A stretch of 64,000 nucleotides of DNA. It comes from Oceanispirochaeta sp. (GTDB lineage: Bacteria; Spirochaetota; Spirochaetia; DSM-2461). The translations under genes and the position numbers were made by a program. Within the stretch, counting starts at the first letter, position 1. The number at the start of each line of letters is the position of its first letter. The notes under the pieces are model-generated. The model saw nothing but the letters and a program-made list of their open reading frames with translations. It searched no databases and was not told the origin of the DNA. The DNA lies in the NCBI GenBank assembly GCA_963663385.2, contig CAXXXD010000002.1, positions 1,728,001 through 1,792,000 on the forward strand. Direction: 5' to 3'. Below are positions 1 through 12,608 of the stretch, in pieces.

Positions 1-609
1 GGAGATCTTTTCGTAATCAATCCGGCCAGGAAAGATCATTGGCTGTCTCTGATGCCGCTCTATCGCAATGAATTGATGATCTGTTTTGTTAAAAGCCGCA
101 AGGAAAATGACAAGCAGACAGAACAGTCAGCCTGTGATGACCTTTTCGCCCTTTTGGGCGGAGAAAAAATCAGGACAAAAAAAGCTTATGTAAATCCTGA
201 TGCCATTCCCGAAAAGAAAACTGAACCCGAACCCGAGGAAAAAACTGCTCCTGTTGGTCCTGATGCAGGTGCAGGCGTCAAAAAGGTATCTACAAAATAC
301 TCGGTTCTTGTCACCAATGAGCTCTTTCATAACGGTAATGTTGAAGCATGGAAGAAAATCATTGAGAGTTATACGACTAAACATCCCGGACTTGATGTTC
401 TTATCTGGTACGATGGAGAACGGATAAACGATATTAATACCCTGTTTAAATGGGGTAAGGTAAAACATGGTACGCCTATTATGTTCAGTGTTGCCGGGGA
501 TGATATTAAAGATGTGTCTAAGCTGAAAAAATACTTTTTCGAGGGTGCCAGCCCCCGATTTGAAGTTTTTTTAAGAGGTGCTGTAAACAGTGTCCTGGAC
601 CTGTTTTAG
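1..609 (+). CDS. 5'-truncated hypothetical protein with a Pro/Glu/Ala linker and a C-terminal HPr-like domain
   Basis: Frame 1 is open from base 1 (GDLFVINPARKDHWLSL-MPL...), so the gene starts upstream of the window. The C-terminal ~90 aa (VTNELFH...YDGERINDINTLFKWG..KHGTPIMFSVAGDD) resemble the HPr pattern. Confidence 0.7.
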   Translation, partial: GDLFVINPARKDHWLSLMPLYRNELMICFVKSRKENDKQTEQSACDDLFALLGGEKIRTKKAYVNPDAIPEKKTEPEPEEKTAPVGPDAGAGVKKVSTKYSVLVTNELFHNGNVEAWKKIIESYTTKHPGLDVLIWYDGERINDINTLFKWGKVKHGTPIMFSVAGDDIKDVSKLKKYFFEGASPRFEVFLRGAVNSVLDLF

Positions 610-642: not shown

Positions 643-3267
643 ATGGATATTTATTCATTCAGCAGTACTGCTTATACAGAAGACAAAGGTGTCCTGGATG
701 TTCTGGGATACAGGGGACGAAGGCTGATGCATCTGGCCGGTTTGGGTATTCCCATTCTGCCCGGGTATGTGCTGTCCAATGATTCTCTGCTGGCTGAACT
801 GGAAGAACCCGGAACGTATAGTTCCAAAATCCATCAATCCATTGAAAATATGGATAAAGTGGTGGGAAAAAAATTCGGAGATTCAGAAAATCCTCTGCTG
901 ATAAAGTATGTATTAAGTCCGCAGCTTAATATGATCGATACTTTTTCCAGCCTGCACAATGTGGGACTGTGTAAAAATACAATCGACGGTTTTGCCAGAT
1001 TTGTTGGAGAGGAATTCGCCTATCACGAATACAGGAATATGCTCAGAAGGGTTATGATCCTGGATCTTGAGATAGAATCGGACTCCAACAGGCGTAAGCT
1101 TCTGGAAAAACTGGCAGCATCCCTGCAGAAATGCGACTCTGCCAAGAAGACAAAAGATGTACTGATCGAAGTGGAAGGCGTATATCCGGAAGAGATATTT
1201 TCCGATCCCTGGGCACAGTTGAGCTATGTTCAATCCCTTTATACGAAATATCTGAAAGAGAGTGAAACCCTGAATGATTCAGCTCTGCTGGTTCAGGCCA
1301 TGACTTTCGGTAACTATGGAAAGGAGAGCTTTTTCGGAAGTTATTATACCCGTGATATTGTTACGGGGAACAATGAACTGTCCGGCAAGTTTTTTGCCAA
1401 TTCCTTTGATGCCACCCAGTCTGACGGTCAGCCCATTACCAAAATAAAAAAGGGTTTCTTCGACGATCTTAAATCCATTGCAAAGCAGTTGGAAACTCAC
1501 TATAAAGAGATTCGTACCATAAAATTCACAGTGGAGGACGGCCGTCTCTGGGTTATTGATCAGAATGCGGCCGATAACAAGTCCACCCAGGCTCATATTC
1601 GCACACTGCTGGATCTGAATAAAGAAGAAATTGTTACAGATGAGTATGTTATAAATGCCATTCAGCCTGGTCGGCTGGCCGAGATCCTTCATCCCGTTCT
1701 GGATAAAGCATCTGCGGAAACCATGCCGTCCTTTTACGGCGGGATTTCCGGTTCCGTCGGGGCCGCTATCGGCAAGGTGTTTTTCTCAACAGAAAAGCTG
1801 ATGCAGGAGTACAGAATCGCCACCCAGCGCGGGCTTGATGCCAATTTCATCCTGTGTATGACAGCAACCTATGCGGAAGATGTCAAGGCAATAGAAGTCG
1901 CCCAGGGTGTAATTACATCAGAAGGCGGCTATGCATCTCATGCACCGGTTGTGGCCAGAAGCCTCGGTAAGGTGGCCATGGTTAACCCGGATATCAGAAT
2001 ACTGAAATCCTCAGTAAAAGTCGGTGAACATACCATCAAGGAAGGGGATTATATCAGTCTTGATGTTCCCTCCTATGATAAACCGACTATATACTTTGAT
2101 AAGGTTAAACTGATAAAGCCCGTAATTGAAGAGAGTGGTATCCTGGAATTTCTGGATATTGCCCAGAAATTCATAGGGGATTTTGATGTGCACGCCAATG
2201 CTGATCAGCCAAAGGATGCTCAGCTTGCCAAGCTTTTTCATGCTGACGGGATCGGTCTATGCCGGACGGAGCATATGTTCTTTGATGAAGAACGAATACC
2301 CCTTTTCCGGTCAATGATAATCGCGGAAGACAAGGAAGATCGGTTCAGGTTTCTTGAGAAGCTGGGAGAAATGCAGACTTCCGATTTCTATAATCTGCTA
2401 AAGATTATGGAGGGACATCCTGTCACAATCCGATTGCTTGATGCACCATTACATGAGTTTCTGCCGCACACCCGGGATAGCATGACTGAGTTTATAAAAT
2501 TCTATAAAAAGAATCATGCCGATGCCAGTGATGCCGATATCAGACTGCGTTGTGACATGATGGGCGAAGTAAACCCTATGCTGGGTCACAGGGGGATTCG
2601 TGTAGGTATTTCTACTCCTGAAATTTACGCCATGCAGATTCGTTCCATCTTTGAAGCTTCCTACAAGCTGATGAAAGAAGATGGTATTACTCCCAGACCT
2701 GAAATCATGCTTCCTGTAGTAATGTCTGAAAGGGAAGTCAAGACCATCAGATTTGGCAAGAGAATCGAGGGAACAGAAATCCTGGGTATTCGTGATATCG
2801 AACTGGCAGTAAGGCAGAAGTACGATGTGGAAGAGACTCTGCCCTACAGGGTAGGTACCATGATTGAGCTCCCCGGCGCTGCTATACAGGCGGACAAAAT
2901 TGCCCGTTATGCTGATTTTTTCAGCTTCGGTACAAATGATTTGACTCAGACGACCAATGGAATTTCCCGGGATGACTTCAATTCATTCTTTACGGATTAT
3001 AACGAATTTGACCTTCTGGAAAGAAATCCCTTCAAGTATCTTAACGGACCCGTAAAAGAACTTGTCTCCATTGCAGCAGAGAGAGGTCGTCTGGTTAGAC
3101 CGGATATGTCTATGGGCTTGTGTGGTGAACATGGGGCAGAGCCGGAGAATATCGAGTTCTGTATGAACCTTGGACTTAACTATGTATCCTGTTCACCTTA
3201 CGGGATCCCCATTGCCAAGTTGGCAGTTGCTCAGAAAACCCTGAAAGATAAAGCTGCATCCAAGTAA
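643..3267 (+). CDS. ppdK: Pyruvate phosphate dikinase-family protein with a degenerate N-terminal nucleotide-binding domain
   Basis: 874 aa. Phospho-His motif GGYASHAPVVAR; PEP-domain motifs GIGLCRTEHMFF, TIRLLD.PLHEFLP, NPMLGHRG, FSFGTNDLTQ and CGEHG. ATP-grasp motifs are substituted. Confidence 0.9.
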   Translation: MDIYSFSSTAYTEDKGVLDVLGYRGRRLMHLAGLGIPILPGYVLSNDSLLAELEEPGTYSSKIHQSIENMDKVVGKKFGDSENPLLIKYVLSPQLNMIDTFSSLHNVGLCKNTIDGFARFVGEEFAYHEYRNMLRRVMILDLEIESDSNRRKLLEKLAASLQKCDSAKKTKDVLIEVEGVYPEEIFSDPWAQLSYVQSLYTKYLKESETLNDSALLVQAMTFGNYGKESFFGSYYTRDIVTGNNELSGKFFANSFDATQSDGQPITKIKKGFFDDLKSIAKQLETHYKEIRTIKFTVEDGRLWVIDQNAADNKSTQAHIRTLLDLNKEEIVTDEYVINAIQPGRLAEILHPVLDKASAETMPSFYGGISGSVGAAIGKVFFSTEKLMQEYRIATQRGLDANFILCMTATYAEDVKAIEVAQGVITSEGGYASHAPVVARSLGKVAMVNPDIRILKSSVKVGEHTIKEGDYISLDVPSYDKPTIYFDKVKLIKPVIEESGILEFLDIAQKFIGDFDVHANADQPKDAQLAKLFHADGIGLCRTEHMFFDEERIPLFRSMIIAEDKEDRFRFLEKLGEMQTSDFYNLLKIMEGHPVTIRLLDAPLHEFLPHTRDSMTEFIKFYKKNHADASDADIRLRCDMMGEVNPMLGHRGIRVGISTPEIYAMQIRSIFEASYKLMKEDGITPRPEIMLPVVMSEREVKTIRFGKRIEGTEILGIRDIELAVRQKYDVEETLPYRVGTMIELPGAAIQADKIARYADFFSFGTNDLTQTTNGISRDDFNSFFTDYNEFDLLERNPFKYLNGPVKELVSIAAERGRLVRPDMSMGLCGEHGAEPENIEFCMNLGLNYVSCSPYGIPIAKLAVAQKTLKDKAASK

Positions 3268-3272
3268 TAAAA

Positions 3273-4157
3273 TCAGGGGAAGAAGAAACGGATCTTATTC
3301 TTTTCTTCTTCCTCTCGCATTTCTGCAAAACACTCGGCCAGATGAACAATGATTTTTAAAGCTGAGTTTTTATTGATATCCGGAAATCGTCTCCGCAGAT
3401 AGTTTATGTGGTTAACACTATGCGTAAAGTTAACTTTCCAGTTAATCCTTCCAAAGCGATCTGTCAGAAATGATGCCAGGTAGTCCATCAGGCTGGCGTT
3501 CAGATACTCTTCCATTTTGTTCCAGTGAGGATTAATTTGCGGATGACGGGGGATATCCCGGGCTTCAAGGGTGATATACTGAAAAAAATAGAGAATAAAA
3601 TCCCGATACACTTCATAAATATATTTATCGTAATCGCTTTTACAGTACATGCTGAGCTCTTTAACCGAGGATGTAACAGTTATCTGTTCTTTAAGGCACT
3701 GTCTGTAACGGAATTTCCGGCTACCTTCATACCGGAGGAAGCGGTTTTCCAGTCCATATTCATAATACCTGTCTGTTGTTTTATGGAAGAGTCTTGTTGT
3801 CTCTGTCATAGCAGCTTTGTATCCGGGGGTGAGCGTTTCAACCCGGGAACTCTGTTTCTCATTTTTTTTCTTTTCTGAATGAAATCTGTTGATATCCTGA
3901 TAAAAGGGGTAAGGGGTTTCAGGTTCGGTATTTCCGGTCGGAGTTACTTTGTTCTTTATCGGATTATTAAGCAGTTCCTTACACTGTTCATAGGCTAGAT
4001 TTATTTCAGTCATTTTTTTGTGAGACCAGTCCTGATTCTCCTGGTTGTAATCGGGATGGTATTTTTTTACCAGTTTTTTATAGGATTTTTGTAAGTCGTC
4101 CTTTGAAAAGTTCTCTTTTAAATGAAAAATCATAAGAGAACGCCGAATATCATGCAT
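3273..4157 (-). CDS. DnaJ (J)-domain protein
   Basis: N-terminal J domain with YKKLVKKYHPD...EINLAYE, followed by a helical C-terminal region of unknown function. Confidence 0.85.
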   Translation of the reverse strand: MHDIRRSLMIFHLKENFSKDDLQKSYKKLVKKYHPDYNQENQDWSHKKMTEINLAYEQCKELLNNPIKNKVTPTGNTEPETPYPFYQDINRFHSEKKKNEKQSSRVETLTPGYKAAMTETTRLFHKTTDRYYEYGLENRFLRYEGSRKFRYRQCLKEQITVTSSVKELSMYCKSDYDKYIYEVYRDFILYFFQYITLEARDIPRHPQINPHWNKMEEYLNASLMDYLASFLTDRFGRINWKVNFTHSVNHINYLRRRFPDINKNSALKIIVHLAECFAEMREEEEKNKIRFFFP

Positions 4158-4331: not shown

Positions 4332-6011
4332 ATGAAGAAAGGGCGAACTTACGGAGCTAAGGCGCTGGTGAAAACCCTTGAAAGATTGGGTGTTGAAATT
4401 ATCTTCGGCTACCCGGGCGGTGCAAACCTCCCCATTTATGAAGCACTGGCATCAAGTTCTATCAAGCATGTACTTGCCAGGCATGAGCAAGGCGCAGCGC
4501 ATATGGCTGACGGTTATGCAAGGGCTACTGGTAAAGTCGGTGTGTGTATGGCCACAAGCGGACCGGGAGCGACTAATCTAGTCACAGGTATTGCAACTGC
4601 CTATATGGATTCTGTTCCCGTACTGGCTATTACAGGGCAGGTTCCCAGAAGCAATATCGGAACAGATGCGTTTCAGGAAGTGGATATAAGCGGGATTACT
4701 ATTCCAATTACAAAACATAACCTTCTGGTGCAGGATGTAAAGGAAATTCCCTCCCGTATCGAAGAGGCCCTTCATATCTGTTCGACTGGCCGTATGGGGC
4801 CGGTGCTGGTAGATATACCCAAAGATGTTCTTCAGGAGGAATTTACCTTGCCTCCGGTAAAAGAGATTGTTCTGGAAGGATATAATCCAAACTCTGTCGG
4901 TCATCCCGGACAGATTAAAAGGGTTGCAAAGATTATCGATCAGGCAAGGCGTCCTTTGATTATTGCCGGAGGCGGTGTCGTTTCTGCCGGTGCATTTGAG
5001 GAATTGAAGAGTTTTGTAGAGTTAACCTCCATCCCTCTTACCTATACATTCATGGGAAAATCGGCTCTGGATAACAATCATCCCCTCAACCTGGGGATGT
5101 GCGGTTATCATGGGCAGCCGGTTTCAAACCAGGCAATTGATCAGTCCGATGTAATAATCGCCCTGGGCGCCAGATTCAGCAATAGGCATACCATTAATCT
5201 TGATACCTACCCGGGGCATAAGAAACTTATCCATATAGATATTGATCCGGCGGAAATCGGCAAGAATGTTGAAACACTGCTGCCGATTGTCGGGGATATT
5301 AAACAGATTCTTGAAAAACTTCTGGATATTGTGAAGAAAACAGATCGATCCGGCTGGCTGAAAACCCTGGAAGGGATATCTGAAAAAACAAAGGATATTG
5401 AGATCCCCGATACGATTTTGTCGGAAACTGGTGTTCTGCGGATTATGAATGAATATATAAAATATCCCCTGGTTACCACGGATGTCGGCAGGCATCAGAT
5501 GTTTGCCGCTCATGAGATTCCCGTAGCCAGCGGCAGGGATTTTATCAGTTCCGGCGGTCTGGGGACAATGGGATTTGGTCTTCCCTCTGCCATCGGTGCA
5601 GCCCTGGGCCGTCCGGACAAACAGGTTGTGGTTGTTAATGGAGACGGCGGTTTTATGATGAACAGCCAGGAGATCGTTGTCGCTGCCGAGCTGGGACTTA
5701 ATATAATTGTTCTTCTGATGAACGATTCCAAACTCGGCATGATTACCATGCTTCAGGATGAATTCTATCAGAGCGGTTTTGATATCAGTAACCTGAGCGC
5801 AGATATAGATTTTGTGAAACTGACAGAGAGTATGGGGGGGAAGGGGCATTCTGTCTCAACCCAGGAGGAACTCCGAAAACTTCTCGCTGACGACGGAATA
5901 AAAAGAGGAATCCATGTGATCGATTGTGTTATCGGTAAAGATGAACATGCATTTCCCATGGTTAACGGCAGCTCTATCGTAGACGTAGTGGAAGGAAGGG
6001 AGAAAAAATGA
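4332..6011 (+). CDS. ilvB: Acetolactate synthase large subunit (isozyme 1)
   Basis: FGYPGG, RHEQGAAHMADGYAR, TSGPGATN, DAFQE, SGGLGTMGFG and ThDP motif GDGG...N; RBS AGGAGG. Confidence 0.95.
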   Translation: MKKGRTYGAKALVKTLERLGVEIIFGYPGGANLPIYEALASSSIKHVLARHEQGAAHMADGYARATGKVGVCMATSGPGATNLVTGIATAYMDSVPVLAITGQVPRSNIGTDAFQEVDISGITIPITKHNLLVQDVKEIPSRIEEALHICSTGRMGPVLVDIPKDVLQEEFTLPPVKEIVLEGYNPNSVGHPGQIKRVAKIIDQARRPLIIAGGGVVSAGAFEELKSFVELTSIPLTYTFMGKSALDNNHPLNLGMCGYHGQPVSNQAIDQSDVIIALGARFSNRHTINLDTYPGHKKLIHIDIDPAEIGKNVETLLPIVGDIKQILEKLLDIVKKTDRSGWLKTLEGISEKTKDIEIPDTILSETGVLRIMNEYIKYPLVTTDVGRHQMFAAHEIPVASGRDFISSGGLGTMGFGLPSAIGAALGRPDKQVVVVNGDGGFMMNSQEIVVAAELGLNIIVLLMNDSKLGMITMLQDEFYQSGFDISNLSADIDFVKLTESMGGKGHSVSTQEELRKLLADDGIKRGIHVIDCVIGKDEHAFPMVNGSSIVDVVEGREKK

Positions 6012-6481
6012 AACATACAATATCCATTCTCTGTGATGACGTCCCCGGTGTAATGACACGTATTTCCGGTCTGTTCTCCCGGAGAGGTTTCAATATTGAA
6101 AGTTTATCCGTTGGTAATACGGACAGGCCCGGTAAGAGCCGGTTTACCATTGTTGTCAACGGAGATGATACGGTTCTGGAACAGGTCCGAAAACAGCTTC
6201 AGAAGCTTATTAATGTTATCAATGTCTGGGATTATAAAAGTGAATCCATCGTAGGCCGGGAACATGCCCTGATAAAAATAAAGGCAGACAAGAAGAATCG
6301 AACTGAACTGCTTCAGCTTGTGGCTTCCGTTCAGGCCAAGATTATAGACTCTTCCGGAGACATCTGGATTCTTGAGGTTACCGGTGATACAGAAGATATA
6401 AACAGCATTATTGACCTGTTTAGCCACTATAACATTGTAGAATCCATACGGACAGGAAAAATTGCTTTAAAAAGAGGTTGA
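6008..6481 (+). CDS. ilvN: Acetolactate synthase small (regulatory, ACT) subunit 1
   Basis: PGVMTRISGLFSRRGFNIESL and RTG motifs; ATGA overlap with ilvB. Confidence 0.95.
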   Translation: MKHTISILCDDVPGVMTRISGLFSRRGFNIESLSVGNTDRPGKSRFTIVVNGDDTVLEQVRKQLQKLINVINVWDYKSESIVGREHALIKIKADKKNRTELLQLVASVQAKIIDSSGDIWILEVTGDTEDINSIIDLFSHYNIVESIRTGKIALKRG

Positions 6482-7214: not shown

Positions 7215-8411
7215 TTAACCTATATTAAACAGTCCTCCCAGGCCGCCAAGGGGGTTGTCGCCGCCGCTCTGGTTTCCCAGTCCCATCATCCTGACAGTGC
7301 CCTGCAGTTCCTGGATCTTCTTCTGCTGTCTTTCGATAATCTCCATCAGCTGGTCAATGTCGTACTCTGGCTGCGCACTTCTTTCCTGCTCTTCTTTGAT
7401 CTGTTTATACAGTTGAAAATCGTTCTCGGTCTCTATCTGCGCCAGCTCATAGGAGCTGCTGTATTCATTCAGGTTCAGGGGCAGTTCCGGAAAATGCCGG
7501 GACTGGGCGATCTTCTGGGCGATACGGAAAATCTGCTGGGCTGTCAGGGTATCCTGATACTCCATCAGAAAGGGAACGCGGTTATGGAGGGATTCATTAA
7601 TATCCCGATCGAACAGAACCGTGCCCATACAGTCCATGGACACAAGGAGATCTTTTTGCACCAGGCGTCCCAGGTTTTCAGCCATTTGAAAATCTTCTTC
7701 GTCTTCAATCATATTCAGTATCATCTTGGGCTGAAGAACTTCCAGGTAGGCCATGGCCTTTTCCATGGTTTCCGGTTCATCCTGACCTATCTCATGGAGG
7801 AGGTGGGCCAGGGTTAAATCCGTACCAGGCAGCATGCGCTTTATATTCTTTTTCAGGTAGGTATCCATCTTTTTGTTTTTGCTGAATGCCTTGTGCAGAA
7901 AACGGATTGTCAGGTTTTTGGTAAAGGAGTAGGCATTCAGGATAGAGCTGGCATGGGGTGTTGTTACTATCAGTCCCGAATTGGAGATCAGAAAAAAGTC
8001 TATTGTATTGAAACTGCTGCCGGCTCCCAGGTCAAGGATAATGTAATCCGCATCCAGTTCCTGGATTTCCTTCATAATTTCCTTTTTCTGGGCATCCGTA
8101 ATGTCTGCCATCCCATAGGAAAGAGTATCTCCGGGTATAAAGTGGAGGTTTTTATAGGGAGTTTCTATAACCAGTGATTTAAAAGTTCTTTTATTGTCCT
8201 GCAGGTAGGTTCCTATTCCGGGATTGGTATTTCTGATGCCGAGAATCGTGTGTAGATTGGCTCCCCCCAGATCCATGTCGACCAGTATGGTTTTTCTATC
8301 TGAAATAGCCAGGGACAGAGCTATATTAACCGATAGTATGGACTTGCCGACTCCGCCCTTACCTCCGGCGATAGGTATAATCTTTTTTTCGATTGTTTCA
8401 TTCAGTACCAA
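7215..8411 (-). CDS. MinD/FlhG (FleN)-family P-loop ATPase with a C-terminal coiled-coil extension
   Basis: Deviant Walker A GGKGGVGKS, plus VDMDLGGANLH and ILDLGAG. Confidence 0.88.
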   Translation of the reverse strand: MVLNETIEKKIIPIAGGKGGVGKSILSVNIALSLAISDRKTILVDMDLGGANLHTILGIRNTNPGIGTYLQDNKRTFKSLVIETPYKNLHFIPGDTLSYGMADITDAQKKEIMKEIQELDADYIILDLGAGSSFNTIDFFLISNSGLIVTTPHASSILNAYSFTKNLTIRFLHKAFSKNKKMDTYLKKNIKRMLPGTDLTLAHLLHEIGQDEPETMEKAMAYLEVLQPKMILNMIEDEEDFQMAENLGRLVQKDLLVSMDCMGTVLFDRDINESLHNRVPFLMEYQDTLTAQQIFRIAQKIAQSRHFPELPLNLNEYSSSYELAQIETENDFQLYKQIKEEQERSAQPEYDIDQLMEIIERQQKKIQELQGTVRMMGLGNQSGGDNPLGGLGGLFNIG

Positions 8412-8566
8412 TTGAGGCTCCTGCAGTTATCTTTTGCCTGTAAATTATACCAGCACTTTTCCATAGAAAACAGTCCCGGGTAACAAAATAGGAAAAAAGT
8501 ATGAAGACATATCAATTCTTTTGTATAATAATAGAGTATATTATTGGTAGTTAATGAACCATTGTT

Positions 8567-10042
8567 ATGAGGGTAGGCTTGAACTCGATGAGTGCAGACG
8601 CAACTGAGATTAATAAAACAAAAAAGACTAGCAATGGGGAAAAGCTTCGGGAGGATATTGAGAAATACTATCTTCCTGAAAATCTTGTAAAATCCATACT
8701 TGAGATTGGTTCCATACCGGAGGAGTCGGAGGAAGCTCTTGTGGGTATCGGATTTCTGGATATTGCCGATTACACATTCCTTTCAAAATTTCTAAGCGCC
8801 AAGGAAAATCAGACTATCCTGAACGGTCTTTATTCCGCTTTTGACTGGGTTCTGAAAAAACATGGCGGTTACCTGAATAAAATCGAAGGGGACAGCCTTA
8901 TGTTTCAGTACGGCGGCCCTATCGATCCCCGAACACGCGGACTGACGGAAGAGGAAACCAGGCTGTATATATCTACCGAACTGTTTTATACCTGTGTCGA
9001 GCTGCAGAGGGTTTGTAACCTTTTTAATCAGGCTAATGACAAATTCCTCTATTCGGAAGAGGAGGGAAAAACCAAACAGAGTATATTAAAGGCTTTTGAT
9101 ATCATCCGGGGGTTGAGGAACAATGAATTTCTCTCACCTTCCATCAATGCCCTCTTTCAGATCAGGATAAGAGTAGGCGCATCAATTGGCAAGGTTCAGA
9201 TAGGCAACTTCGGTCCCGACGGGGCCAAGCACTGGGATGTCATCGGGATGCCCGTTATTTATGCCAAGAGAATGGAATCGACAGCACCGGTCGGGGGATT
9301 CAGAATATCGGAAGAGTATTTCAAGATTCTGGATGATCAGGGTGTCGTTGAGGCTTATATGACCCGGTTTAAAAGGGAGGCTTCCGCTCTGTTCAGCGAT
9401 TACAGGACGATAAAGAAAGAGGAGCTTTTCCGTTTCAGTCAGGTATTTCTGAAAGAAAAGAAGAATGCCGGATTCAATACCTACAGTGTGCAGGTTGAAC
9501 CGAATCTTCCGGAGGAACTGGTACGTCAGGTGGAACTTCTGCTTCAGAAAGATGAACCGGGGGCTTCCCGTATTATTGATTTTCTGCAGTATTACAGGGG
9601 AAATCAGTATGTTATTAATAAACTCGAAGACCTTTTCAGGCGTTCGAAAATAAATATAAGAAAAGATGAGCTGCTTAAACTTCTTCTTCCCGGCCGGTAC
9701 CGGTACTATATTTCACAGGCCATGGGTGATGAGGGGAAGGCGGCGGAACTGATACACGAGGAATTTACTTTAAAGGACCTTATGGATATTCTGGGGGATC
9801 TGCAGGATGCTGTAAAATCGGTGAGGAATCAGACGCCCCCTCTATTGTCTGAGTATCCCGGATATGAAGAGTATATAAAACAGGAAGAGTATAAAATCAC
9901 AGCCCATTACGATGACATAAAAAACTCCATTGCTCATACAAGCTATTTTTACAATCTCCTTTTTCCGCTGTTTTTCAGGCATATCAAATCCAGTATTCTG
10001 GAATATCAGCAGAGGCTGGAGATTGTGGAGGATGTATTGTGA
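8567..10042 (+). CDS. Class III adenylate/guanylate cyclase domain protein (soluble)
   Basis: GFLDIADYT, KIEGDSLM, IRVG...G..G and WDVIG.PV..AKRMES motifs. Confidence 0.82.
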   Translation: MRVGLNSMSADATEINKTKKTSNGEKLREDIEKYYLPENLVKSILEIGSIPEESEEALVGIGFLDIADYTFLSKFLSAKENQTILNGLYSAFDWVLKKHGGYLNKIEGDSLMFQYGGPIDPRTRGLTEEETRLYISTELFYTCVELQRVCNLFNQANDKFLYSEEEGKTKQSILKAFDIIRGLRNNEFLSPSINALFQIRIRVGASIGKVQIGNFGPDGAKHWDVIGMPVIYAKRMESTAPVGGFRISEEYFKILDDQGVVEAYMTRFKREASALFSDYRTIKKEELFRFSQVFLKEKKNAGFNTYSVQVEPNLPEELVRQVELLLQKDEPGASRIIDFLQYYRGNQYVINKLEDLFRRSKINIRKDELLKLLLPGRYRYYISQAMGDEGKAAELIHEEFTLKDLMDILGDLQDAVKSVRNQTPPLLSEYPGYEEYIKQEEYKITAHYDDIKNSIAHTSYFYNLLFPLFFRHIKSSILEYQQRLEIVEDVL

Positions 10043-10688: not shown

Positions 10689-12608
10689 TTGGGCAGTGAT
10701 TTTTTACCCGTAAACCGGGAGGATATGAAAAAACGCGGCTGGGGCAGTTGTGATTTTGTACTGATATCTGCAGACGCCTATGTGGATCATCCTTCCTTTG
10801 CCATGGCCATCATCTCCAGGGTGCTGGAGGATAGGGGGTACAGGGTTGGTATTATTTCACAGCCTGACTGGAAGGACCCTGATGCATTCCGGGTACTGGG
10901 AAAGCCTGATCTGGCCTTTCTCGTATCTGCCGGCAATATCGATTCCATGGTCAACCATTACACTGTTAACCGCAAACTGCGCAGACAGGATGCATACTCT
11001 CCCGGAGGAAAAACCGGTCTGCGTCCGGACAGGCCTTCCATTGTTTATACTTCCATGGCCAGGCAGGCATACAAAGAGATTCCGGTTATTATCGGAGGGT
11101 TGGAGCCCTCTCTCCGGAGATTGTCTCACTACGATTACTGGAGCGATAAGGTACGCCGTTCCATGCTTCTGGACAGTAAAGCTGATCTTCTGATGTACGG
11201 GATGGGTGAAAGCAGTATGGTATCCATCGCTGAGGCTCTGAAAACAGGGCGTTCCGCAGCTGAACTGAAGAACCTGAGAGGAACGGTCTGTGCTGTCTCC
11301 TCAAAGGACCAACTCCCTCCGGACTGTCTGATTCTGCCGTCTTTTGAGGAAGTTTCCGCGGACAGGAGAGCCTATGCAGAAAGCTTCCGGATCCAGTATC
11401 ATAATACGGATCCTGTTCTGGCAAAGCCTCTGGCGGAACCCTGCGGAAAACGGTTTGTACTGCAGAATCCGCCATCTTTTCCCATAACCCGAGAAGCCAT
11501 GGATAGAGTCTATGCTCTGCCTTATATGAGAAAGGCACATCCCATGTATGATTCAGAAGGTGGAATCCCGGCCCTGAAAGAGGTCGAATTCTCCCTGGAA
11601 CACAACAGGGGGTGTTTCGGCAGCTGCAACTTCTGCGCCATTACATTTCATCAGGGGAGGATTGTCTCTTCCCGGAGCCACAGTTCCGTACTGGCCGAAG
11701 CTGAAAAGCTGACAGCTCTGCCCGGGTTTAAAGGGTATATACACGATGTGGGCGGGCCGACTGCCAATTTCCGGAGGCCTGCCTGTTCAAAACAGCTGTC
11801 CAATGGGGCTTGTCAGGATCGGTCCTGTCTGACACCTGATCCATGCGGGAACCTCGATTCGGATCACCAGGATTATCTTGACCTTCTCAGAAAGCTGCGG
11901 AAACTGAACGGGATTAAGAAAGTATTTGTGCGTTCGGGAATCCGTTTCGATTTTATGCTGCAGGACAAAAATGAGAAGTTCTTCAGGGAGCTGTGCGAGC
12001 ACCACATCAGCGGACAGCTCAAGGTCGCTCCGGAACACGTTTCTCCCCGGGTTCTCAAAGCGATGAACAAGCAGAAACACCCCGTTTACAGGAAATTCAT
12101 GAAGAGATTCGCCGAAATAAACAGGGAGTTGGGGAAAAAGCAGTACCTTGTTCCCTATTTTATCTCTTCCCATCCCGGCAGTACCCTGAAAGATGCCATT
12201 ATGCTGGCTGAATTCATGAAGGAGACCCGCTTTATTCCCGATCAGGTTCAGGACTTCTATCCGACACCGGGTACAATCTCCACCTGTATGTACTATACCG
12301 GCCTTGATCTTGAAACAATGCAGCCAATTCCTGTGGTCCGGAAAGAGCGGGAAAAGAAGATGCAGCGGGCCCTGCTGCAGTTTAACCGGTCTGAAAATTA
12401 CAGGCTGGTTAAAGAGGCTTTGCAGAAAGAGGGCCGAACTGATCTGATCGGGAACGGTCCCCGCTGCCTGATAGGGAATAATGGGAGTTCAGAAAGGTAT
12501 GCCCGGGGCGAACAGAAAAAAGAAGGAGCCCCGATACTCAACGGGAATCTTTCCCGGGGCAGGGGCAGAAAACGTCCGAAGGGTAATAATACCCGGAGAC
12601 GTTCATAA
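10689..12608 (+). CDS. ygiQ: YgiQ (UPF0313) family radical SAM protein
   Basis: DAYVDHPSF, RGCFGSCNFC (CxxxCxxC), DVGGPTAN, LKVAPEH and QVQDFYPTP. Confidence 0.93.
   Translation: MGSDFLPVNREDMKKRGWGSCDFVLISADAYVDHPSFAMAIISRVLEDRGYRVGIISQPDWKDPDAFRVLGKPDLAFLVSAGNIDSMVNHYTVNRKLRRQDAYSPGGKTGLRPDRPSIVYTSMARQAYKEIPVIIGGLEPSLRRLSHYDYWSDKVRRSMLLDSKADLLMYGMGESSMVSIAEALKTGRSAAELKNLRGTVCAVSSKDQLPPDCLILPSFEEVSADRRAYAESFRIQYHNTDPVLAKPLAEPCGKRFVLQNPPSFPITREAMDRVYALPYMRKAHPMYDSEGGIPALKEVEFSLEHNRGCFGSCNFCAITFHQGRIVSSRSHSSVLAEAEKLTALPGFKGYIHDVGGPTANFRRPACSKQLSNGACQDRSCLTPDPCGNLDSDHQDYLDLLRKLRKLNGIKKVFVRSGIRFDFMLQDKNEKFFRELCEHHISGQLKVAPEHVSPRVLKAMNKQKHPVYRKFMKRFAEINRELGKKQYLVPYFISSHPGSTLKDAIMLAEFMKETRFIPDQVQDFYPTPGTISTCMYYTGLDLETMQPIPVVRKEREKKMQRALLQFNRSENYRLVKEALQKEGRTDLIGNGPRCLIGNNGSSERYARGEQKKEGAPILNGNLSRGRGRKRPKGNNTRRRS

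Follow-up and report, generated by a model that had tools for sequence, protein, structure and literature searches.

We analysed a 64,000-nucleotide stretch of DNA from an Oceanispirochaeta sp. (hereafter the window), at the start of which lies a gene related to pyruvate phosphate dikinase (PPDK). The gene is a single open reading frame (ORF) at 643..3267 on the plus strand, without internal stop or frameshift, which encodes 874 aa plus a stop codon and forms the third member of a cassette headed by cfpA, the gene for the cytoplasmic filament protein. cfpA itself lies upstream of the window on the plus strand (7708-9666 of the fetched locus L038; NF040882, 1053.9 bits). The second cassette gene encodes a TP_0747-like protein of 313 aa, hereafter U313; it occupies 9668-10609 of L038 on the plus strand, starts 333 nt before the window, has its 3′ part at window 1..609 and ends 33 nt before the start of the PPDK-like gene. 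A canonical PPDK is encoded on another contig of the same genome (TIGR01828, 1333.8 bits), and we refer to the cassette gene as the paralogue. The subject of this work is the N-terminal domain of the paralogue, in which the ATP site has been systematically replaced.

The paralogue resembles PPDK over its whole length. The NCBIfam profile TIGR01828 matched it from profile position 4 to 864 of 865 with 667.9 bits, a score that does not reach the curated cut-off of 843.45. Among PDB sequences, phmmer returned the PPDKs of Clostridium symbiosum, maize, Flaveria and T. brucei (E 1e-131 to 1e-143), and the C. symbiosum enzyme aligned over residues 17-870 at E ~1e-143 in HMMER. An AF2 model built from 108 sequences reached a mean pLDDT of 86.8 and a pTM of 0.81, and its best Foldseek matches were PPDK chains (E ~1e-64). 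The three domains stand in the PPDK order: a remodelled ATP-grasp (nucleotide-binding) domain (aa 1-345; 643..1677), a linker with the swivelling phospho-histidine domain (aa 346-505; 1678..2157; PF00391 at aa 400-474), and the TIM-barrel domain that binds phosphoenolpyruvate (PEP) and pyruvate (aa 506-874; 2158..3264; PF02896 at aa 513-865, 3.9e-70). PF01326 (PPDK_N) was not detected in the Pfam scan at E 0.01. An earlier reading of this DNA, made from the sequence alone (hereafter the original prediction), had set the end of the N-terminal domain at 1600, 77 nt short of its end at 1677; its description of that domain as near full length and free of frameshifts agrees with the 874-aa open frame.

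Replacement and re-specification of the ATP site

We compared 108 paralogues with 29 canonical spirochaete PPDKs (a 30th canonical locus, L013, was dropped because of stops), using HMMER alignment to C. symbiosum PPDK together with MAFFT; residue numbers given as canonical are those of C. symbiosum. These numbers, the catalytic roles and the list of ATP-site ligands are in part general background on the enzyme, and the roles reportedly go back to work by Herzberg, Dunaway-Mariano and co-workers. PDB titles record that K22A and R337A mutants of PPDK have been made.

The original prediction had claimed that the catalytic motifs of the ATP-grasp domain are replaced one after another while those of the C-terminal part are retained. 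All the strings that it named were found in the ORF, and both aligners bear out most of the replacements. GYRG (aa 22-25; 706..717) takes the place of GGKG and puts R24 at K22, which is Lys in all 29 canonical enzymes and Arg in all 108 paralogues. KYVLS (aa 88-92; 904..918) replaces SVRSG and brings the new invariant K88; R92, present in 29/29 canonical sequences, is Val in 108/108 paralogues (V90 here). The NAQGEDVVAG loop has become NSFDATQS (aa 253-260; 1399..1422), which is 7 residues shorter in the MAFFT alignment, contains the invariant F255 and falls in a block with a pLDDT of 70. TIKFT (aa 292-296; 1516..1530) replaces the canonical motif, which had been quoted as DIEFT and reads DMEFT in C. 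symbiosum, and is directly preceded by the new invariant R291. D321 (T292 here) and E323 (K294 here) are each conserved in 29/29 canonical PPDKs and in none of the paralogues, the latter position holding Arg in 62, Lys in 43 and Thr in three. R337 likewise goes from 29/29 to 0/108 (A309 here). The proposed equivalence of LQTR and IDQN (aa 305-308; 1555..1566) was one residue off: since both aligners set Q307 under Q335 and leave D306 as a one-residue insertion, Q335 is retained, not replaced, and it is Gln in 29/29 canonical enzymes and 108/108 paralogues. In a study of the plant enzyme, Flaveria PPDK Arg95 and Glu324, which are taken to be the equivalents of R92 and E323, bind ATP directly, and their mutation would probably abolish activity (PMC5507339).

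The C-terminal motifs CRTEH (aa 540-544), TIRLLD (595-600), MIE (740-742), GTND (763-766) and CGEHG (827-831) carry the equivalents of R561, R617, E745, N768/D769 and C831, which, as had been predicted, are retained; these residues and H455 are each found in 29/29 canonical PPDKs and 108/108 paralogues, so that every catalytic residue checked in the barrel is present. The catalytic His of the paralogue is His433 (1939-1941), in the motif GGYASH. Two residues before it, the Thr of canonical numbering 453 is replaced by Ala in 81 and by Ser in 27 of the 108 paralogues.

We then counted the columns that are invariant in the canonical set (n = 29) and in which at least 90% of the 108 paralogues carry the same residue. 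Such retention falls to 24/146 columns (16%) in the N-domain; the His domain keeps 21/54 (39%) and the PEP domain 101/133 (76%). Because of this gradient the replacement is systematic and affects the ATP end of the protein alone, and the pattern is far beyond chance. Identity to the canonical PPDK of the same genome is 25% in the N-domain and 45% in the PEP domain. By fold and descent the paralogue is a PPDK relative; by its curated score and its ATP-site residues it is not a member of the PPDK family.

The altered domain is itself conserved. Two protein searches recovered the N-domain in hundreds of proteins (303 and 933 matches), and in the AF2 model its blocks have pLDDT values mostly of 84-96, with two weaker blocks, at 72 and 70, at the changed loops. 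R24, K88, V90, S92, H105, D212, F255, R291 and Q307 are invariant in 108/108 paralogues and all present here; apart from Q307, these are former active-site positions fixed to new residues. The ratio of non-synonymous to synonymous substitution rates (dN/dS), computed for 15 genome pairs, was usable only for G011-G024 and G020-G016, dS being saturated or undefined in most of the others. In these two pairs it was 0.142 and 0.230 for the N-domain of the paralogue and 0.077 and 0.052 for that of the canonical enzyme. Across 18 genomes with both copies, mean pairwise identity was 0.469 (N), 0.602 (His) and 0.660 (PEP) for the paralogue and 0.728, 0.679 and 0.701 for the canonical PPDK. Thus the N-domain of the paralogue changes at about twice the rate of the canonical one, yet purifying selection on it is clear, and the domain has been re-specified, not lost.

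These data bear directly on whether the paralogue is a decaying duplicate, a pseudogene in the making. The roughly twofold divergence of its N-domain and the splitting of the gene by a frameshift in one relative would fit such a fate; against it stand the open frame, the low dN/dS, the invariants across 108 sequences and the presence of the gene in 85/151 genomes of the class and 59/201 of the phylum, and its retention in a genome of 1.1 Mb. We rejected decay as refuted for practical purposes by the conservation data, and consider it to have next to no chance of being right. The original prediction had preferred repurposing to decay, and that preference is upheld by the conservation, the confident fold, the dN/dS values and the new invariants; the docking or ligand-sensing role that it named is one of several that fit, along with catalysis on a new acceptor.

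In the relative with the split gene (G027, L055 ~10878-10884), the two tblastn matches to the window's paralogue, aa 2-622 and aa 617-864, lie in frames 1 and 3 respectively; this points to either a frameshift or a sequencing error close to where the second half of the PEP domain begins.

The canonical copy and the paralogue are readily told apart. TIGR01828 scores of full-length matches in 41 relatives are bimodal (1296-1376 versus 619-676 bits), and the cut-off is exceeded in 38 of the 41, in one case by a truncated match of 1101 bits. With a profile of the paralogue N-domain, no full-length paralogue falls below 311 bits, two partial ones reach 251 and 214, and canonical copies score at most 187. 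In the explanation that we favour, the ordinary PPDK activity of this genome would come from the canonical copy. By the N-domain profile the 85 genomes with the paralogue belong to a sample of 151 from the class, and 47 of the 59 found in the phylum sample lie outside the class; in two large families of the phylum sample the paralogue was not found (0/30 and 0/31 genomes). The sources of the relatives include Oceanispirochaeta, Marispirochaeta, Sediminispirochaeta, Alkalispirochaeta and an Olavius symbiont; a contig scan yielded 507 relatives, of which the 80 retained were all from Spirochaetota other than named Treponema.

A third kind of PPDK relative was seen at G036:C29:310618-312153 and G007:C2:2209434-2210969. 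It scores ~606-612 bits against TIGR01828, covers only profile positions 356-864, and in frames of ~800 aa has an N-terminus of another kind in front of the His and PEP domains; G036 has neither cfpA nor the paralogue.

Linkage to cfpA and the T. pallidum-type genome

The original prediction passed over the two most informative facts: that the genome has a canonical PPDK at another place, and that the paralogue is obligately linked to cfpA. The 20 fetched loci come from 20 genomes and at least 13 GTDB families, and all 20 show cfpA followed by the 313-aa gene and then the paralogue, with gaps of a few bases. Among the 151 sampled genomes of the class, cfpA and the paralogue occur together in 82; three have the paralogue only, none cfpA only and 66 neither, in a sample in which related genomes are not independent and the pattern spans many families. 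In each of the three with the paralogue only, the gene lies at most 1.5 kb from the contig end on its upstream side. Of the 82 genomes, 78 have cfpA directly upstream of the paralogue and on its strand, at a distance of 1085-1912 nt (median 1344); the other four are fragmented assemblies that carry the two genes on separate contigs. One genome, G133, has two full-length cfpA matches (C32:94123-95934, 1198.7 bits, and C53:174738-176549, 1174.6 bits), and the paralogue follows only the first.

The same arrangement can be recognised in treponemes. PMC3914990 reports that T. denticola TDE0842 (cfpA), TDE0843 (hypothetical) and TDE0844 ('pyruvate phosphate dikinase, putative') are repressed together by one partner species, and PMC3373638 places T. 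pallidum TP0748 (cfpA) and TP0746 (PPDK) on the reverse strand a few kb apart. TP0746 and TDE0844, both annotated 'pyruvate phosphate dikinase', thus occupy the same place downstream of cfpA (TP0748 and TDE0842), with one gene between.

The intervening protein, U313, had no Pfam or NCBIfam match in local library scans. Its nearest Atlas clusters are named after TP_0747 and carry PF27497 (TP_0747_N), with a score of 0.96, which we treat as a lead only. In alignment a low-complexity linker joins the N-terminal part of the protein to a C-terminal domain that is very conserved, and the AF2 model of U313 has a pLDDT of 77.9. A VIA-align search of residues 74-166 against 48,161 PDB representatives gave HPr or NPr as all five of the best chains (Z 8.6, 7.9, 7.8, 7.2 and 6.6), headed by E. 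coli HPr with a root-mean-square deviation of 2.0 over 80/85 aligned residues; Foldseek with the U313 model found nothing at E 0.001 and HPr entries only at E 0.04-0.15. The likeness to HPr in the model is one of fold, and a shared fold is no demonstration of function. Residues 202-300 gave generic ferredoxin-like matches (Z ~6). The C-terminal domain is modelled with the element order beta-alpha-beta-beta-alpha-beta-alpha, and just before its first helix an FHNGN loop holds the invariant His H221. A complex prediction of paralogue aa 1-505 with whole U313, from alignments of 107 and 21 rows respectively, scored 0.01 against a mark of 0.32, in a run without controls, and speaks neither for nor against binding.

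One genome, G161 (1.1 Mb, one contig, 99% complete), bears on the function from a different side. The PPDK family is represented in it by one copy, the paralogue (608.5 bits; 810752-813313, minus strand), and cfpA lies at 814710-816533 on the same strand. The ORF has 901 aa with E501, P655 and A869. The published reports on TP0746 give a size, single-nucleotide variants at nt 810772 and 811414 and residues that agree with this ORF (PMC10013896, PMC3373638). Because ORF size, coordinates and residues all agree with published TP0746, we infer that G161 is a T. pallidum-type genome. Its paralogue, ~45% identical overall to the window protein, has GIRG, Val at R92, the shortened loop, Arg at E323 and Pro at R337; it keeps Q335 and carries Glu at the D321 position.

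Profile searches of G161 found no canonical PPDK and no pyruvate kinase. The next-best match to the PPDK profile scored 112.6 bits (C1:625850-626932, profile positions 420-777, in a 711-aa frame) and is possibly an Enzyme I relic of the kind reportedly described for treponemes. G161 does encode a GTP-dependent PEP carboxykinase (PEPCK; 544 bits) and the alpha subunit of oxaloacetate decarboxylase (OadA; 939.6 bits, above cut-off), and with both present a route from PEP through oxaloacetate to pyruvate exists without PPDK. Three other genomes that carry the paralogue only (G046, G055 and G057) have pyruvate kinase.

Possible functions of the paralogue

The reading that we favour, at a probability of about one half, is that the paralogue serves the cytoplasmic-filament module in histidine phosphotransfer, driven by PEP and independent of ATP, as suggested by its residues and gene context. 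The intact C-terminal barrel would pass a phosphoryl group from PEP to His433 and release pyruvate, a step in which we have high confidence because the site is conserved completely. The swivelling His domain would then carry the group to the N-terminal domain, which it probably still visits, given the re-specified invariants at old phosphate-binding positions and the kept linkers. There the ATP-grasp fold would persist around a cleft rebuilt with R24, K88, V90, H105, R291, K/R294 and Q307, presumably incapable of the canonical reaction of phosphohistidine with AMP and pyrophosphate (PPi) because the Mg and phosphate ligands R92, D321, E323 and R337 are replaced. The phosphoryl group would pass to a non-nucleotide acceptor, or be held as a signal of the PEP/pyruvate ratio. 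On the strength of gene order and co-occurrence, a protein of the CfpA module would be the likeliest acceptor or docking partner, and the first candidate would be the neighbouring TP_0747-like protein with its HPr-fold domain.

A bolder extension, which we regard as doubtful, would make the whole cassette a PEP-fed phosphorelay from the glycolytic state to the filament ribbon and on to cell division or chromosome handling. The phenotype described for cfpA reportedly concerns division and chromosome segregation. The PPDK-like protein would serve as an Enzyme I analogue with the former ATP cleft as its transfer site, the TP_0747-like protein would act as carrier via H221, and the syphilis spirochaete would be without a true PPDK.

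Several observations weigh against a histidine phosphotransfer protein that has given up ATP. The change of K22 to Arg is conservative and Q335 is kept in every paralogue, while close in sequence to each lost charged residue stands a new invariant with the same kind of charge (K88, R291 and the D306 insertion), which makes a rewired site for a nucleotide, Mg or a phospho-anion possible. By hand count, 69 of 120 relatives of the L050 protein, among the matches listed, have a precomputed PF01326 match, so that part of the family still shows an N-domain of recognisable PPDK_N type; the 108 members aligned here share the ATP-site replacements despite such matches among relatives. G161, lacking canonical PPDK and pyruvate kinase, is easiest to explain if the paralogue still turns PEP into pyruvate. 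On the side of the proposed partner, a Z of 8.6 is in the middling range of the tool, and the HPr-fold domain of U313 has no conserved His at the His15 position, residues ~87-89 being a variable S/D/T. Enzyme I, moreover, docks HPr on a helical subdomain unrelated to ATP-grasp.

The points that concern the ATP site and G161, together with similarity to PPDK over the full length and the Glu at the D321 position in G161, are also the case for a still working PPDK, or a close variant with another nucleotide and a rewired ATP/Mg site. TP0746 has indeed been treated as a glycolytic PPDK that most likely converts PEP, AMP and PPi to pyruvate and ATP (PMC10013896). We nevertheless consider this quite unlikely. 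Arg or Lys at E323 in 105/108 paralogues reverses the charge of a residue that, according to PMC5507339, binds ATP directly; R92 is always Val, R337 is never kept and the loop after NAQGED is 7 residues shorter. Most genomes with the paralogue also hold a canonical copy, the strict linkage is to cfpA rather than to glycolytic genes, and in G161, which has no canonical copy, PEPCK and OadA offer a bypass. A subunit that only docks or senses would bind PEP or pyruvate, perhaps autophosphorylate, and signal by conformation alone, its N-domain forming a surface to CfpA filaments or to the TP_0747-like protein with no onward phosphotransfer. This is unlikely in our estimate; it draws on the same linkage and conservation data as the phosphotransfer reading, and contacts of the His domain have changed, as seen from the loss of the Thr at -2 and the 39% of canonical-invariant columns kept. 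Set against it, His433 and the checked PEP-site residues, the catalytic Cys among them, are invariant in 108/108 paralogues, beyond what ligand binding would need, and the new invariants appear to lie at former phosphate-binding positions (R24, K88, R291) and not only on the outer surface. Finally, the protein could be a PEP-dependent phosphotransferase for a small anion, for example PEP + Pi -> pyruvate + PPi, with a basic cleft that binds the anion without Mg and a product that feeds PPi-dependent glycolysis. Acidic Mg ligands have indeed given way to basic residues, with R24, K88, R291 and K/R294 gained, the full PEP catalytic apparatus is kept, and a reduced genome that lacks pyruvate kinase has retained the gene; this leaves the obligate cfpA linkage unexplained, we know of no enzyme that makes PPi from PEP and Pi, and we think the idea very unlikely.

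Comparison with characterised enzymes places the paralogue between families. With PPDK (EC 2.7.9.1; structures 1dik/1kbl, 1vbg and 5jvl) it shares domain order, length, the catalytic His and the checked barrel residues; it differs in TIGR01828 score, at R92, D321, E323 and R337, in the change of K22 to Arg, in the loss of the regulatory or catalytic Thr before the His, in its coexistence with a canonical copy and in its linkage to cfpA instead of metabolism genes. The PEP-binding barrel and the His domain both have homologues in Enzyme I of the phosphotransferase system (PTS), its EI-Ntr/NPr branch included; TIGR01417 matched the paralogue at aa 641-869 with 106 bits, short of its cut-off of 341.7, and Enzyme I structures were among the Foldseek matches. 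The two would presumably share the logic of transfer from PEP to His to a non-nucleotide acceptor, and an HPr-fold protein is encoded immediately upstream of the paralogue, whose N-terminal 345 aa are an ATP-grasp derivative without the helical HPr-binding subdomain of the Enzyme I N-terminal region (EIN). In the phosphotransfer reading its working logic would, by analogy, be closer to PTS Enzyme I than to PPDK. Rifampin phosphotransferase (RPH) and PEP synthase also combine an ATP-grasp domain with a mobile His domain and gave weaker matches (RPH 5hv1/5fbs at E ~1e-4 in Foldseek; PEP synthase TIGR01418 at 104 bits); they have a working ATP site and use rifampin or pyruvate as acceptor, whereas the ATP site of the paralogue is changed.

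Databases and papers label the cfpA-linked gene 'pyruvate phosphate dikinase', and our literature searches, which covered few subscription journals and no supplements, found no report of a lost ATP site or of paralogy for it. If the ATP site is indeed gone, the assignment of the ATP-yielding step from PEP to pyruvate to TP0746 in T. pallidum would be wrong and the energy model of that organism would need revision. The CfpA filament, whose function is poorly understood, would gain two obligate partners, one of them built to read PEP, and with them a testable link between central metabolism and the bacterial cytoskeleton. The N-domain is a clean natural example of an ATP-grasp domain re-specified rather than lost.

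Other genes around the cassette

Upstream, on the same strand, the order is a gene for a TPR protein, one for a 949-aa protein without a family, cfpA, the 313-aa gene and the paralogue. The 949-aa gene (L038 4679-7528) lies directly upstream of cfpA; BLAST found its relatives at the same place in 14 of the 20 fetched loci, with 23-55% identity, and it may be a fourth member of the cassette. A scan for a sigma-70 promoter or terminator, at background level overall, gave none in the 33 nt that separate the TP_0747-like gene from the paralogue. In three marine-sediment metatranscriptome runs, 0.05-0.09 of the sampled words were present, and these data were not used as evidence of expression.

Downstream, a convergent gene on the minus strand (3273..4157) encodes a 294-aa protein with a DnaJ domain (PF00226, 9e-10), a relative of which stands at the same place in 10/20 loci by BLAST. 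Further along, two overlapping ORFs on the plus strand (4332-6011 and 6008-6481) look from their translations like ilvB/ilvN, the large and small subunits of acetolactate synthase, and the translation of a 398-aa ORF on the minus strand (7215-8411) opens with a GGKGGVGKS P-loop of the ParA/MinD/FlhG type.

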